NCBI RefSeq assembly: GCF_988243305.1
Contig: NZ_OZ547136.1
Length of the DNA stretch: 64,000 nucleotides
Direction: 5' to 3' (one strand)
Part shown: piece after piece, positions 4,127 through 63,848 of the stretch
How the letters are laid out: the number at the start of each line of letters is the position of its first letter
Numbering within the stretch: position 1 is the first letter of the stretch
Translations under genes and position numbers: made by a program
The notes under the pieces: generated by a model
The model's input: only the letters and a program-made list of their open reading frames with translations
Databases searched by the model: none
What the model was told of the DNA's origin: nothing

Positions 4127-4786
4127 ATGAGTGAATCAGCGTTTAAGGATTGCTTTTCAACGGATGTTTCAGCCGATACGCGGCTGTTTCATTTTTTAGC
4201 GCGTGACTACATTGTGAAGGAAGGGCAACAGCCGTCCTGGCTGTTTTACCTGACGCGAGGCCGCGCCAGGCTTTACGCCACGCTTGCTAATGGTCGCGTG
4301 TCGCTGATCGATTTCTTTGCCGCGCCCTGTTTTATTGGCGAGATTGAGTTAATCGATAAAGACCATGAACCGCGTGCGGTGCAGGCTATTGAAGAGTGTT
4401 GGTGTCTTGCGCTCCCTATGAAACATTACCGCCCGCTGTTATTAAACGACACACTATTTTTACGAAAACTCTGCGTTAGTTTAAGCCATAAAAATTATCG
4501 CAATATTGTTTCTTTAACTCAGAATCAATCATTTCCGTTAGTGAATCGCCTGGCAGCTTTTATATTACTCTCACAAGAAGGTGATCTTTATCACGAAAAG
4601 CATACGCAAGCGGCAGAGTATTTAGGCGTTTCTTATCGACATCTTTTATATGTTCTCGCGCAATTCATTCACGACGGTTTATTAATTAAAAGCAAGAAAG
4701 GATATCTAATTAAAAACAGAAAGCAGTTGTCAGGACTGGCGCTGGAGATGGACCCGGAGAATAAATTCTCCGGGATGATGCAGTAA
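4127..4786 (+). CDS. yeiL: CRP/FNR-family transcriptional regulator
   Basis: ORF track starts at GTG 4088 (232 aa); ATG at 4127 gives the 219-aa form I recall for YeiL. Start is uncertain. Confidence 0.8.
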
Positions 4787-4807
4787 AAAATAATCTGCAA
4801 TAGCACG

Positions 4808-4848
4808 ATTGCCGGATGTGACGCTTAATAAGCGCGTACATCCGGCAA
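4808..4848. repeat. REP-like palindromic unit
   Basis: Inverted repeat tgccggatgt...acatccggca in the yeiL-psuT convergent gap. Confidence 0.5.
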
Positions 4849-4854
4849 TGACAC

Positions 4855-6105
4855 TCAAGCTAAACCAATAAAGAACCCGGCAATGGTCGCGCTCATCAGG
4901 TTGGAAAGCGTTGCTGCTGCCAGCGCCCTTAAACCAAGCTGAGCGATTTCCGGAGCACGTTTTGGCGAAATAGCCGAAAATGCCCCAACGACAACACCGA
5001 TAGAACCAAAGTTAGCAAAACCACAAAGCGCAAAGGAGATAATCGCAATGGTTTTCACTTCCAGCGTGCCGCCCGTTTGCAGGTATGGGGAGAAACTCAG
5101 GTAAGCGACGAATTCGTTAATCGCCAGTTTCTGCCCAATCAGGCTACCCGCAAGGTTGGCATCACTCCAGTCCACACCCATGATCCACGCCAGCGGTGCC
5201 AGCACATAGCCAAAAATACTTTCCAGAGAGGCATTGGCGAAACCAAACCAGCCGCCAATTCCGCCGATAATGCCGTTGATCAGCGCAATAATTGCGACAA
5301 ACGCCATTACCACCGTCGCTACACCAGCGGCGATTTTCAGCCCGGTCATCGCACCGCTCGCCGCCGCTTCGATAAAGCTTTTTGGCGGCGTTTCGCTGAA
5401 CGACAGATTTTCAAATGTCACCTGCGAAGGCTCGGTGGCTGGGCTAAGAATACGTGCAAACAAAATACCACCAGGGATCGCCATCAGCGATGCCGCTAAC
5501 AGGTAGTCAATTGGTACGCCCATTCCGGCATAACCAATCATCATCGAACCAGCAATGGACGCCATCCCGCTACAAATTGCGGTAAACAACTCGTTGCGAT
5601 TCATGCGATCGATAAACGGTTTAACGATCGCAGGGATCTCATTTTGCCCGAGGAAAATAGTGGTAACCGCAACAAAAGATTCGATTTTGCTGATGTTGAG
5701 GGCTTTCTGGAAAATGCTGCCAAGGATGCGGATTAGCAGCCCCATCACGCCAATGTAGTACAGCAGGCTGATGAGCGCAGTGACGAAGATAATCGCCGGG
5801 AGTACGCGAAAGGCGAAGATAAAGCCCGCGCCATCAAACAGGACATCCATTTTCGGCCCGACCAATGAACCAAAAATAAAGGCACTACCGGCATCACTGT
5901 AAGACATCACTTTATGAACGCCTAATGCCGCCTGCTCTACCGCCCATTTTCCTGGTGGAAAATAGAGCATGATGCCGCCAATGGCGATTTGTAGCAGCAG
6001 CGCGGCTCCAACCGTGCGCAAACTGATGCTCTTTTTATTCACTGACAACAAAAATGCTATTGCCAGTAACACCACCATCCCCACAACACTTCTCATTATA
6101 TCCAT
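4855..6105 (-). CDS. psuT: Pseudouridine/nucleoside transporter (CNT family)
   Basis: 416-aa ORF paralogous to nupX; last gene of the psuK-psuG-psuT operon. Confidence 0.9.
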   Translation of the reverse strand: MDIMRSVVGMVVLLAIAFLLSVNKKSISLRTVGAALLLQIAIGGIMLYFPPGKWAVEQAALGVHKVMSYSDAGSAFIFGSLVGPKMDVLFDGAGFIFAFRVLPAIIFVTALISLLYYIGVMGLLIRILGSIFQKALNISKIESFVAVTTIFLGQNEIPAIVKPFIDRMNRNELFTAICSGMASIAGSMMIGYAGMGVPIDYLLAASLMAIPGGILFARILSPATEPSQVTFENLSFSETPPKSFIEAAASGAMTGLKIAAGVATVVMAFVAIIALINGIIGGIGGWFGFANASLESIFGYVLAPLAWIMGVDWSDANLAGSLIGQKLAINEFVAYLSFSPYLQTGGTLEVKTIAIISFALCGFANFGSIGVVVGAFSAISPKRAPEIAQLGLRALAAATLSNLMSATIAGFFIGLA

Positions 6106-6171
6106 AATGATTTTCCCTTCATGCCAGTAAACCCGGCGTCAGCGCCAGGTTTTGGTATGTATGATCAGTAC

Positions 6172-6199
6172 GGGCGACGGCTTTCTGCCCGTCAGAAAT
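6172..6199 (-). other. Conserved 28-nt leader element, copy 2 (psuG-psuT gap, overlaps psuG stop by 1 nt)
   Basis: 27/28 identical to 2943..2970. Confidence 0.4.
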
Positions 6200-7137
6200 T
6201 AACCCGCGAGACGCTGGTATTCTTTGGCAATTTCACTCGCCAGAATGGCGTTGTTGAACACCAGTTGGATGTTGGATTTCAGGCTGTCACCGCCAGTCAG
6301 TTCAGCAACACGAGCCAGCAGGAACGGTGTGCTTTCTTTACCAATAACGCCCTGCTCTTCGGCTTCGGCAACGGCTTGATCTATGGCTGCATTGATAGAT
6401 TCCTCCGGCATCGCAAACTGTTCCGGGATCGGATTTGCCACCACCAGGCCACCGTTCAGCCCGCTTTGCCATTTCACCGCCATTGCATGGGCAATTTCAC
6501 TGGCGCTGTCGAGACGAATACTGACGTCAAACGGGCTGGTACGGCAGAAAAACGCAGGCAGCGCTTTGGTCTGATAGCCAATTAACGGCACACCGAAGGT
6601 TTCTAAATACTCAGTGGTTAATCCTAAATCGAGAATAGATTTCGCCCCGGCACAAACAACGGTGACATTAGTATTTGCCAGTTCTTGCAAATCGGCAGAA
6701 ATATCGAAGGTATGTTCCGCCCCGCGATGCACACCACCAATTCCCCCTGTGGCAAATACTTTAATTCCGGCAAGCGCCGCAATAATCATCGTTGAAGCAA
6801 CGGTAGTTGCGCCATTTTTTCCGGCGGCAACAACAAAAGGTAAATCGCGACGACTAACTTTGGTCACGTTATGCCCTTCACGACCCAGCAATTCAATTTC
6901 TTCTTTGCTTAAACCCACTTTCATCACGCCGCCAATAATGGCGATAGTGGCAGGTACAGCGCCCTGTTTACGAATAGTTTCTTCAACTTCAATTGCGGTC
7001 TGGGCATTTTGTGGGAACGGCATCCCGTGAGAAATAATGGTCGATTCCAGCGCCACAACCGGTTTTTTGTTTTTTAAAGCGTCCTGCACTTCCGGGGAAA
7101 TTTGTAATAATTCAGGGGAAATTTTTAATTCAGACAT
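6199..7137 (-). CDS. psuG: Pseudouridine-5'-phosphate glycosidase
   Basis: 312-aa ORF matching the PsuG/YeiN family; overlaps psuK by 13 nt. Confidence 0.9.
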   Translation of the reverse strand: MSELKISPELLQISPEVQDALKNKKPVVALESTIISHGMPFPQNAQTAIEVEETIRKQGAVPATIAIIGGVMKVGLSKEEIELLGREGHNVTKVSRRDLPFVVAAGKNGATTVASTMIIAALAGIKVFATGGIGGVHRGAEHTFDISADLQELANTNVTVVCAGAKSILDLGLTTEYLETFGVPLIGYQTKALPAFFCRTSPFDVSIRLDSASEIAHAMAVKWQSGLNGGLVVANPIPEQFAMPEESINAAIDQAVAEAEEQGVIGKESTPFLLARVAELTGGDSLKSNIQLVFNNAILASEIAKEYQRLAG

Positions 7138-8066
7138 TCTGCGTTCTCCACTAACGATATAACGTTGGCAATCGATAAATCGGGGTTATTGGTGTATTCA
7201 CAGGAGAGCGCCATTGACGAACATCCCTGTGCGAAACGAACAGATTCGGCAAACGGCATTCCGTCTACCCAACACGAAGCAAGCCCCGCCATCATGGCAT
7301 CGCCCGCTCCGGTAACATTAATAACATTGGTTTTGATCGGCGCAGACCAGCCACTTTCACCGCTGATATCACTGTAATAAACGCCATCGCCGCCCATGCT
7401 CAATACCAGTCGGTTCAGGCCATGTTGATGGAACCAGGCAGCAACTTTTGCCACATCTTCACGCCCTGACAGCGCAATCCCACTCAGGGTTTCCGCTTCA
7501 AGGCGGTTTGGCTTGAGAGTGTGGATTTGATTTAGACGGTCGCGCACTTTGACACATTTCCATGCGGAAACCGGATCGACAAATACGGGTACGTTGGCGG
7601 CATTATCCAGAATCCATGCCAGTGCCTCTTCACTGATATTACAGTCTGCGACAATGACCTTTGCCCTCTGAATAAATTCACGGTGCTGTGCGAGATATTC
7701 AGCTGTAATAGCGTTGCTAATATTCATGTCATTTATAGCAACCAGCATTTCACCGGTATTATCGAGTAATGATAAATAGCTTGACGTATTTTCTCCCGGC
7801 ACAATCAGGCATTTATCGACATAAACGCCAGATTGATTGGTTTGCGTTAGCAGCGATTGACCATAAAAATCACTGCCTACGGCGCTCAGTAGCCAGGCTT
7901 TGTTCTCCAGCAACGCCAGGTTTTGTGCAATATTGCGCCCGACTCCACCAGGCGTAAATTTTATTTTACCTGGATTTGAATCCGCATAATTTAATGATTC
8001 ATGTGAATATCCGGCGACATCAATATTCGCCGAACCTATAATTACGACATAATCCTTTTCGCGCAT
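7125..8066 (-). CDS. psuK: Pseudouridine kinase (PfkB family)
   Basis: 313-aa ORF with PfkB motifs GGVGRNIA and GAGD; first gene of the psu operon. Confidence 0.9.
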   Translation of the reverse strand: MREKDYVVIIGSANIDVAGYSHESLNYADSNPGKIKFTPGGVGRNIAQNLALLENKAWLLSAVGSDFYGQSLLTQTNQSGVYVDKCLIVPGENTSSYLSLLDNTGEMLVAINDMNISNAITAEYLAQHREFIQRAKVIVADCNISEEALAWILDNAANVPVFVDPVSAWKCVKVRDRLNQIHTLKPNRLEAETLSGIALSGREDVAKVAAWFHQHGLNRLVLSMGGDGVYYSDISGESGWSAPIKTNVINVTGAGDAMMAGLASCWVDGMPFAESVRFAQGCSSMALSCEYTNNPDLSIANVISLVENAECLN

Positions 8067-8334: not shown

Positions 8335-8489
8335 GAGGAAATAACCTTAGTGTTTGATGAAGGTTTCAGGTTTCTACTAAAAGATAAAACCATTTAAATT
8401 CATAAAATTACATTCACAAACCGGTCATTCTCTTTGCGCGCATCAAATGTTACAGGGCAGGAAATTTCTGCCCTGTAACACACCTTTTA

Positions 8490-19316: not shown

Positions 19317-19363
19317 TAAACCGTTTGGATGCAATCCCTTGGCTATCCTGACGAGTTAACTGA

Positions 19364-19390
19364 AAGCACTGCTTAGGCAGTGCTTTTTTG
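19364..19390 (+). terminator. Intrinsic terminator after mepS
   Basis: Stem AAGCACTGC/GCAGTGCTT with loop TTAGG, followed by a T run. Confidence 0.7.
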
Positions 19391-35059: not shown

Positions 35060-35074
35060 AAAATCCCAAAAAAA

Positions 35075-35100
35075 ACCAACCGTAAAGGTTGGTTTTTTTA
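35075..35100. terminator. Bidirectional intrinsic terminator between proL and yejO
   Basis: Stem AACCAACC/GGTTGGTT flanked by an A run upstream and a T run downstream. Confidence 0.75.
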
Positions 35101-46974: not shown

Positions 46975-47656
46975 TGTTCCCCTCCAGCCAGCCGAAGCGG
47001 TAATGGTGACCTAACTCCCCTTTCGCCAGTGACAGCGGTAACACCTTGATTGCCGGTTGTTCCAGCACGCACACTTTTTCGCACTTACCGCAGCCGGTAC
47101 AGGCGTCGCTGTGAACCGTCGGCAGAAAGCGGGCGTGCTTACCGGTACGCGTGTTGCGCTCCAGCTCCAGGGTGATTGCCTCATCAATTTTCGGGCATTC
47201 GCGATAACAAACATCGCAGCGCAGCCCCTGAAAGTTGAGACAGTTTTCCTGGTCCACCAGTACCGCCAGCCCCATCCGCGCGTCGTCGATCGATTCGATC
47301 TCACGATCCAGCGCACCGCTCGGGCACACTTTGGCGCACGGAATGTCCTCACACATTTCGCAAGGAATATCCCGTGCGACAAAATATGGCGTGCCCGCCG
47401 ACAGGCCAGAAGCCAGCGTCGCCAGTTTTAAGGTGTCATAAGGGCAAGCCTGAACACACTGACCGCAACGCACACAGGCACTGGCAAAGGCGTTCTCGTT
47501 TATGGCTCCGGGCGGGCGCAACCGCACGCCAGATGCGCGTGCGGTTTGCTGTTGTAACCCCAGCGCCACACCCACGGCAGCCAGCCCGCCAGCTGTGCGA
47601 ACGACATCGCGCAGAAAGCGGCGGCGACCATTTTGAGGTTTCGCTGACCGGGACAT
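46961..47656 (-). CDS. napG: Ferredoxin-type protein NapG
   Basis: 231-aa ORF with twin-arginine signal (RRRFLR) and four 4Fe-4S motifs. Confidence 0.95.
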
Positions 47657-51789: not shown

Positions 51790-51805
51790 ACTGCCGTGAA
51801 GTGCT

Positions 51806-51938
51806 CCACCCCGTAGGTCGGATAAGGCGGTCACGCCGCATCCGACATCCAACGCCCGAGCCGGTTGCCTGATGCGACGCTGACGCGTCTTATCTGCATA
51901 CGCCACATCCGGCATACCATGCCGGATGTGGCACATCA
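51806..51938. repeat. REP element cluster (BIME-like)
   Basis: Several GCCGGATG / CATCCGGC-type palindromic units between eco and mqo. Confidence 0.6.
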
Positions 51939-53597
<1,659 letters not shown>

Positions 53598-53802
53598 TTA
53601 CTTTTAGTCGCTTTATTGCAGGTGAGATTTGCGCGGCATCAACGGTAACACTTAAGTAACAACATTTAAATAATGTTTATAAATTATATTCTAATTTTAG
53701 AAACATTATAATTTCGTTGATTAATTATAGGGTTATTAGAAATGAAGGGATTTTTAGCATATTGACCTGGCGGCAGCAGTCCGCCAGGTCAGCGTCGTAA
53801 TA

Positions 53803-55446
53803 TTATGCCGTCCGGGCAACGGCATCACGCGAAGCAGCATCGCGCTCTTCGCCTGTCAGCTCGCTAAGTAGCCCGTTGCGCATTTCCAGCAGGCGGTCAG
53901 CGTGGATAAAGTAATGATCATCATGACTGATGGCGAAAATCGTTTTACCCATCTCCTGCATCAGCGGCAGCAGCACCTGATAAAACTCACGACGGAAGTG
54001 TGGGTCCTGATCCGCCGCCCATTCATCCAGCAGGATAATATCGCGTTCTTCTGCCAGCGCCAGCAACAGCGCCACGCGTTTTTTCTGCCCTTTTGATAAC
54101 TTCAGGTTAACAATACGCCCGTTGCTTAACTCAAGCTTATGAGCCATTTTCAGTTGCGCCAGCCACTTCTTAATCAGTTGCGGGTTAGCGGGTTGACCCT
54201 CCGGCCCCAGCAGTTGATCGAACAGCCAGACATCGGTAAACACTGCCGAAAACAGTTTGCGATAATCTTCCGGTTGTTCGCCGCTGACAGGTTTGCCATC
54301 CAGCAAGATTTCGCCGCTTTGTGGCTGATACAAGCCCGTCAGCAACATCGCCAGCGTCGATTTTCCACTACCGTTACCACCAATCAGAAACAGCAGTTCG
54401 CCACGTTTGATGGTGAGGTTAATCGGCCCAACGGAAAACGCGTTATCCTGATAAGCAAACGTCACGTTACGCAGCTCCAGCGTTTGCCAGTTGGGAAACG
54501 CCTGCGGGCGCGGAAACTCTGCTTTGAAAGGCGCGAGCGCGAATTTGTTCAGCTTGTTAAACGCCACCTGCGCCGTCAGCAGCGTCGGTAATGCGCCAAC
54601 CGCCGAAAGCAGCGGCGTACGCAGGAATAACAGCGTCAACGAATAGGTCGCGGCAACGTTGGTATCAGCCCAACCGAGACTGTTCGCCATCCAGAACACC
54701 AGGCCGATTGCGCCCAGCATCATGATGTTTGACCAGTTCACGGCACTAAGATGGAAGGTGTCTGCGCGGATAATATGATGGCGATACTCTTGCGCATCAG
54801 GAATGTAGAGGTTGTTAAACACATACTCGGCGCGTTCCCGGTTCAGAGTCAGCTCTTTGCGCCCTTCGAGTACGGTTTGAAAATCCGTGTACAGCTTGTC
54901 TTCGGTTTCACGCAGGGTCGCCATATGTTTGTACACCCGCGCCACCAGCACAAAACCGCCCCAGATGGTGACTGCCATCCAGATAGCCGTTACCAGCAAC
55001 ATTTTGCCCGACAGCATCCACAAGTACGCCGCGGAACCGATAGTGAGGATGATCCCCTGCACCAGTTCCGGCAGACGCACAAAAGCAATGGTGATATTGC
55101 GCACATCGCTGGTTAACCCCGCCAACAACGAGGCGCTACCAAGTTGTTCAATGCGCTCAACATGGGTATCCAGAATCCGCTTGATAAATTCGCTACGCAG
55201 TCGGTAAACGAAGTGATGTCCTAAAGTGGTGAGCGCCAGTTGCGATCCGAGAGTGACTGCCATCAACAGCAGCAATAATCCCAGAAACTCCGGCAACACC
55301 AGCAGACTGGTATCCGCCGTTTCGATAAGGCGCTGATTGATAAAAGCAATTAAGCCAATGCCTAAAGCCGCACTGGCGAGGCTTAGCGCCATCACACTGA
55401 TAAATGGCCAGCGATACTGCCGCCAGACAAGTACAAGAAGTTCCAT
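53803..55446 (-). CDS. yojI: ABC exporter, fused permease/ATPase (microcin J25 efflux)
   Basis: 547-aa ORF with N-terminal TM domain and C-terminal ABC ATPase (GGNGSGKST). Confidence 0.9.
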
Positions 55447-59938: not shown

Positions 59939-60031
59939 GCTATCATCATTAACTTTATTTATTACCGTCATTCATTTCTGAATGTCTGTTTACCCCTATT
60001 TCAACCGGATGCCTCGCATCCGGTTTTTTTT
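59939..60031 (+). ncRNA. micF: MicF small regulatory RNA (antisense regulator of ompF)
   Basis: GCTATCATCATTAACTTTATTTATTACCGTCATTCATTTCTGAATGTCTGTTTACCCCTATTTCAACCGGATGCCTCGCATCCGGTTTTTTTT, divergent from ompC, ending in its own terminator hairpin and T run. Confidence 0.9.

Positions 60032-63685: not shown

Positions 63686-63848
<163 letters not shown>

Follow-up and report, generated by a model that had tools for sequence, protein, structure and literature searches.

How does the yojI transcript of Escherichia coli end, when the stable hairpin just behind the gene, HP2, is not followed by a U tract? HP2 sits in the 3' UTR of the yojI transcript, inside the 217-nt spacer between yojI and mqo, and was analysed in a 64-kb stretch of E. 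coli DNA (64,000 nt, referred to throughout as the window) whose yojI-mqo spacer is 100% identical to that of O157:H7 strains. The features of the locus are listed in Table 1. The mqo promoter had been placed in the same spacer by the original prediction, and the published promoter hexamers do map there; this constitutive sigma-70 promoter, TTGATG-16-TGCAAT (Shimada 2014, PMC3946193), has its TTGATG at 53637-53642 and its TGCAAT at 53615-53620, about 120-150 nt downstream of HP2. Binding of H-NS to the AT-rich mqo/yojI spacer has also been reported (Shimada 2014, PMC3946193). On the plus strand, a promoter-like site at 53645-53674 that faces HP2 is at chance level (1 found, 1.0 expected). Directly upstream of the mqo -35 hexamer there is a direct repeat on the minus strand, TGTTAC-N5-TGTTAC at 53645-53661, which is conserved in Citrobacter; this repeat resembles the ArcA box, and it would fit the reported ArcA control of mqo.

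Table 1. Features at the yojI-mqo boundary, with positions in the 64,000-nt window.
Feature	Position	Strand	Description
mqo	51939..53585	minus	ORF and RefSeq annotation
mqo upstream block	53586..53738	minus	homologous to the Citrobacter and Kosakonia mqo upstream region (alignment by eye); holds the mqo promoter
Downstream tract	53675..53762	minus	G-poor, C>G, AU-rich, untranslated; C about 15%, G 4-5%
Stem-loop HP2	53763..53791	minus	UGACCUGGCGG / CCGCCAGGUCA, loop ACUGCUG on yojI-sense RNA
Spacer, yojI stop to stem	53792..53802	minus	11 nt, UAUUACGACGC
yojI CDS	53803..55446	minus	ORF list, 547 aa, and RefSeq annotation of identical or near-identical loci; microcin J25 efflux ABC transporter
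HP1	53805..53825	minus	AUGCCGU-UGCCCGG-ACGGCAU; weaker than HP2, overlaps the yojI stop codon

The hairpin was originally described as a 10-bp perfect stem at 53764-53790, GACCTGGCGG-CAGCAGT-CCGCCAGGTC, beginning 12 nt past the yojI stop; these exact letters are present in the window and the distance is borne out by the ORF coordinates. The stem is slightly longer than first noted, with an extra pair between T53763 and A53791 that brings it to 11 perfect base pairs, 8 of them G-C, with arms at 53763-53773 and 53781-53791, a loop of 7 nt and a start 11-12 nt beyond the yojI UAA. By coordinate offset, HP2 corresponds to 2,306,932-2,306,960 in NC_000913.3. Folding of the yojI-sense RNA with RNAfold gave -23.4 kcal/mol, with a z of -4.9 relative to dinucleotide shuffles. 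The window contains 10 perfect stems of at least 10 bp with a loop of 3-9 nt, compared to a mean of 0.17 in 30 dinucleotide shuffles, and HP2 is therefore no chance palindrome. Apart from HP2 and a palindrome behind mqo (see below), the perfect hairpins of at least 10 bp are located at 8448-8480, 19363-19386, 31590-31617, 34900-34928, 35069-35099, 47520-47546, 60003-60025 and 63796-63828; two of these, at 31590 and 35069, are flanked on either side by A and T tracts, in the manner of bidirectional intrinsic terminators. RefSeq carries no annotation beneath HP2, and a scan of 53000-54500 against Rfam 15 (E<=10) returned only sub-threshold chance matches, none of which reaches its gathering threshold, the best of those overlapping HP2 scoring 16-25 bits against gathering scores of 48-80. 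HP2 is an unannotated element that belongs to a well-known kind.

Inspection of the flanks confirmed that no U tract follows the stem on either strand, and a terminator scan calls nothing at HP2. The sense tail, AAUAUGCU, has 3 U in its first 8 nt and the tail on the opposite strand has 2 U. With a d'Aubenton-Carafa-type terminator score, HP2 reaches -27.7 in sense and -40.0 in antisense orientation, compared to +21 to +48 for four canonical terminator readings in the window, and its T-score is 0.84 versus 4.3-5.3 for canonical terminators. The absent U tract, the negative scan and the score rule out an intrinsic terminator on either strand. The A-rich flank that had been claimed on the yojI-sense strand is present, as AAUAUGCUAAAAAUCC follows the stem. 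The C/G ratio is 2.7-4.0 in windows of 78 nt that begin at the stem or directly behind it and, judged by its composition, the downstream tract at 53675..53762 is a candidate for Rho loading, for access of RNase E to single-stranded RNA, or for both; the tract is mainly AT-rich, so it is no textbook C-rich rut site.

These features recall a described class of transcript ends. Steady-state 3' ends of Rho-dependent E. coli transcripts are found just after stable stem-loops without a U tract, which have reduced U, no upstream A tract and a mild excess of C over G downstream; such ends arise by PNPase/RNase II trimming of longer primary transcripts (Dar & Sorek 2018). By analogy, we propose that HP2 is probably a 3' UTR stem-loop that defines and protects the 3' end of the yojI mRNA, after Rho termination or cleavage followed by trimming. 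RNA polymerase would pass through HP2 with, without a U tract, little or no intrinsic termination, and would then enter the untranslated, G-poor, C>G, AU-rich tract; the transcript would be ended there by Rho, possibly aided by H-NS on the AT-rich spacer, or alternatively by an endonuclease cut if it reads on towards mqo. The 3'-5' exonucleases PNPase and RNase II would trim the product to the base of the stem and leave a stable yojI mRNA, the end of which would be expected at about 53759-53763 (NC_000913.3 about 2,306,928-2,306,932, minus). We infer the involvement of Rho, the trimming and the stabilising effect from the sequence and from the likeness to this class.

The same data could be read in terms of a weak or partial intrinsic terminator, or of a hairpin-stabilised pause, by which HP2 would stop some polymerases at the stem base without Rho and thereby insulate the mqo promoter from yojI readthrough. 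The energy and geometry of HP2 resemble those of intrinsic terminators, and the stem-loops of the class described above are energetically indistinguishable from terminator hairpins and have been suggested as possible transition states (Dar & Sorek 2018). Among the Escherichia alleles, a compensatory change in L007 produces a more U-rich tail (GG-UUAAUAUUCU) that is flagged by a simple scan. However, E. coli RNA polymerase terminates poorly at hairpins without a U tract, and the tail composition, the negative scan and the strongly negative score of the allele in the window all speak against such an activity, which we consider unlikely.

We then turned to the distribution of HP2 within the species. 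Of 5426 complete E. coli genomes, 5421 have exactly one site that matches a 41-nt query, even at E<=10, and in the window no further copies were found beyond the single match at up to 3 mismatches, while matches to the HP2 half-sites are at chance level. A REP/BIME-type repeat is ruled out by the single copy per genome, by the lack of a REP consensus and by the lack of a second copy in the window. The palindrome behind mqo is of a different nature; on the minus strand at 51790-51935 a 14-bp perfect palindrome, GCCACATCCGGCAT-GGT-ATGCCGGATGTGGC, is followed by the REP-consensus-like GGATGTCGGATGCGGCGTGACCGCCTTATCCGACCTAC and, since both come after the mqo stop (51939), mqo ends in a REP/BIME cluster. 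The position of HP2 next to yojI is kept in E. coli strain E3, in which an IS1 is found about 20 nt downstream of the hairpin (about 372-672 of that locus), between yojI and the mqo promoter.

The perfect-stem allele of the window (O157:H7-type) is found in 2162 genomes, whereas the K-12 allele, CCGUC, is found exactly in 2799 genomes and converts one G-C pair to G·U. The wobble forms only in RNA of yojI sense; RNA of the other strand would have a mismatch, A·C, at this place. Where the stem is polymorphic within E. coli, a C of the 3' arm has changed to U; further G·U variants that pair on the sense strand only are found in L004/L092, L091 and L083, and no variants of the opposite kind, with a wobble only on the other strand, were seen among the alleles compared. 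Judging by this asymmetry between the strands, it would be as yojI-sense RNA that the stem matters. Weakened stems are present in rare alleles, with a G·G mismatch in L084 and two mismatches (GGAAG) in L006. The L083 allele (E. coli strain 2018-05-2CC) has a strongly divergent yojI 3' end and spacer at 255-420 of its locus, and retains the hairpin core, CCUGGCGG/CCGCCAGG, with another loop and a shortened stem; this divergent allele was probably imported by recombination from another Escherichia lineage.

The variant pattern also bears on whether HP2 acts as DNA rather than as RNA. With its two perfectly matching 11-bp arms separated by 7 bp, and located upstream of the mqo promoter in a spacer with a reported H-NS site (Shimada 2014, PMC3946193), HP2 might bind a dimeric regulator of mqo or yojI or form a cruciform. 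Such a palindrome is disfavoured by an RNA-type substitution pattern and by the location of HP2, which is not part of the mqo upstream block conserved between genera; there is free variation in the flanks and in the 7 bp at the centre, an asymmetric C-to-T change that is neutral only for pairing of the sense-strand RNA is carried by 52% of genomes (the 2799 above), and L007 alters both half-sites in a complementary manner. With half-sites in the window at chance level and one place per genome in addition, we regard a role of HP2 at the DNA level as very improbable.

In order to characterize selection on the pairing, 11 distinct Escherichia alleles were aligned. In this alignment the loop occurs in six different sequences, and the 11-nt spacer before HP2 is variable among Escherichia lineages as well (UAUUUUGACGC, UGUUUUGACGC). 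Comparison of the five divergent alleles with the window gave changes at 7 of 110 stem sites and at 30 of 90 sites of loop and spacer (Fisher p about 1e-6, which is indicative only as the lineages are not independent), a rate of change in the stem that is about 5-fold below that of the adjacent loop and spacer. In L007 a G-C pair of the HP2 stem is replaced by a compensatory A-U pair. A structure combining HP1 and HP2 gave 97% of cells paired and 3 compensatory pairs on the alignment, values that were reached by 0 of 500 shuffles; two of the three compensatory pairs belong to HP1 and were discounted for HP2. The covariation amounts to one compensatory pair and a few wobble variants among closely related genomes. 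Taken together, the alleles indicate that the HP2 stem is under purifying selection, in keeping with a structure that functions as part of the yojI RNA.

HP1, the hairpin over the yojI stop codon, showed two apparent compensatory synonymous changes in L083. The DAVARTA codons of the yojI C-terminus fix five of the seven HP1 pairs, and the remaining two, which are free to vary, form together in only 6 of about 72 loci from other genera, a frequency close to that expected by chance. HP1 as a selected structure was rejected on the grounds of this codon constraint and the chance-level free pairs. In cryptic-clade Escherichia, unlike in K-12 and O157, a weak U-rich tail, AAUAUUUUG, comes after HP1.

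To place HP2 in a wider context, 80 yojI loci were compared, with one genome per species. HP2 is confined to Escherichia (L003-L007) among those 80 loci. In other Enterobacteriaceae a gene for an mgtE-type Mg2+ transporter is found between yojI and mqo (Citrobacter) or right after yojI (many), or mqo is located elsewhere; the presence of mgtE between the two genes in other genera indicates that the adjacency of yojI and mqo in E. coli is the result of a lineage-specific deletion or rearrangement. From TAATAACCC (53738) to the mqo ATG the spacer is homologous to the Citrobacter/Kosakonia mqo upstream region, so that E. coli has kept about 150 nt of the sequence that stood ancestrally in front of mqo, and the ~65 nt that hold HP2 are Escherichia-specific. 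The conserved mqo block begins about 25 nt downstream of HP2 and, since the ~65 nt that bear the hairpin are specific to Escherichia, HP2 belongs to the end of yojI and not to the mqo control block. In Escherichia sp. MOD1-EC7003 (L006), Rhs/YD-repeat C-terminal fragments and small ORFs take the place of mqo (positions 4644-7178 of that locus). The Rhs-type DNA is joined to the hairpin exactly at its 3' base, and the hairpin is still attached to yojI.

Homology of HP2 with the hairpins behind yojI in Citrobacter and other genera was rejected, as no convincing alignment was obtained and only the mqo-proximal ~150 nt are common. Structure at this place is nevertheless widespread, as 70 of 78 Enterobacteriaceae loci reach a folding energy of -15 kcal/mol or better in the first 60 nt after yojI, with sequences that are unrelated. 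A canonical hairpin with a T tract follows yojI in at least 26 of 73 non-Escherichia loci under strict criteria, a lower bound because Atlantibacter terminators with 9-nt loops are missed, and this count also speaks for the partial terminator considered above. These numbers indicate that a 3' structure after yojI is general, and that the Escherichia version is the one that lacks the U tract.

Such a history would also be compatible with HP2 as a relic without present function, left over from the rearrangement by which Escherichia lost mgtE; it might, for instance, descend from a terminator hairpin whose T tract has disappeared, and owe its persistence mostly to recent common ancestry. Besides the Escherichia-specific origin of the segment and the yojI-mgtE-mqo order of other genera, this reading is supported by the very close relationship of most of the 5421 genomes and by the mismatched stems of L084 and L006. 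A relic would not account for stem changes that are about 5-fold rarer than those in loop and spacer and that are compensatory or wobble, with every common variant still pairing in the sense RNA, and we therefore find it improbable that HP2 is without function. A further scenario is that the loss of mgtE in Escherichia left yojI with a U-less hairpin and that the yojI/mqo boundary became conditionally leaky, being dependent on Rho and H-NS, with yojI transcription feeding mqo under stress that lowers Rho. If true, it would document how termination changed, recently in evolution, from intrinsic to factor-dependent, with a consequence for regulation, although we judge this extension to be quite unlikely.

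Published transcript-end data were searched for the corresponding region of MG1655. The curated Term-seq tables of Adams 2021 (three conditions) list no 3' ends in 2,304,000-2,309,999, and the bicyclomycin table of the same study has no Rho-dependent region between yojI and mqo, the nearest one being at MG1655 2,304,374 (-), downstream of mqo and antisense to eco. No yojI/mqo entries are present in the SMRT-Cappable-seq supplements or in the operon-decay supplements of Dar & Sorek (PLoS Genetics 2018), and a full-text literature search for yojI/mqo and termination returned nothing relevant. That no transcript end is recorded at HP2 in the Adams 2021 tables counts in favour of a relic. However, the curated 3'-end lists require expression and contain no yojI or mqo entry of any kind, and their silence is therefore uninformative; it neither confirms nor refutes an end at HP2 and may reflect low expression of yojI.

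The original prediction had suggested that the hairpin may be a 3' stability element or a Rho-dependent region rather than an intrinsic terminator. The latter part stands, on the grounds of the missing U tract and the score of -27.7, and the former is partly supported; the selection on the stem and the G-poor, C>G tract fit it, whereas neither a 3' end nor a Rho region is listed in Adams 2021. No better interpretation is available, and the comparison of alleles and genera strengthens it, with the mechanism being our proposal. The relevance of a 3' stem-loop that protects the yojI mRNA is that the class of U-less 3' stem-loops ends most of the E. coli mRNAs that are not intrinsically terminated, and HP2 would add to it an example with population-scale evidence of selection on pairing; relatives often have a self-sufficient terminator where Escherichia yojI has a U-less hairpin. 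HP2 would also mark the 3' boundary of yojI, which is of use in annotation and when deletions or fusions beside the mqo promoter are designed. It is otherwise ordinary and brings no conceptual change.

In comparison with known systems, HP2 shares with REP/BIME elements that it is an extragenic palindrome in a 3' UTR and of a kind that can block 3'-5' exonucleases, but it is single copy and lacks the REP consensus, whereas true REPs follow the neighbouring mqo. With intrinsic terminators it has in common the length of the stem, the size of the loop, the fold energy and the site right after the stop codon, and intrinsic terminators proper stand at the equivalent place in other genera; unlike these, HP2 has no U-rich tract of 7-8 nt on either strand and scores far lower than canonical terminators. 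The closest match is the class described by Dar & Sorek 2018, although the tract downstream of HP2 contains more A and T than a classical rut site. As in that class, HP2 is a stable, GC-rich and non-repetitive stem-loop just after the CDS, with no U tract behind it (tail AAUAUGCU), no A tract before it (UAUUACGACGC) and an excess of C over G downstream, though with an absolute C content of only about 15%.
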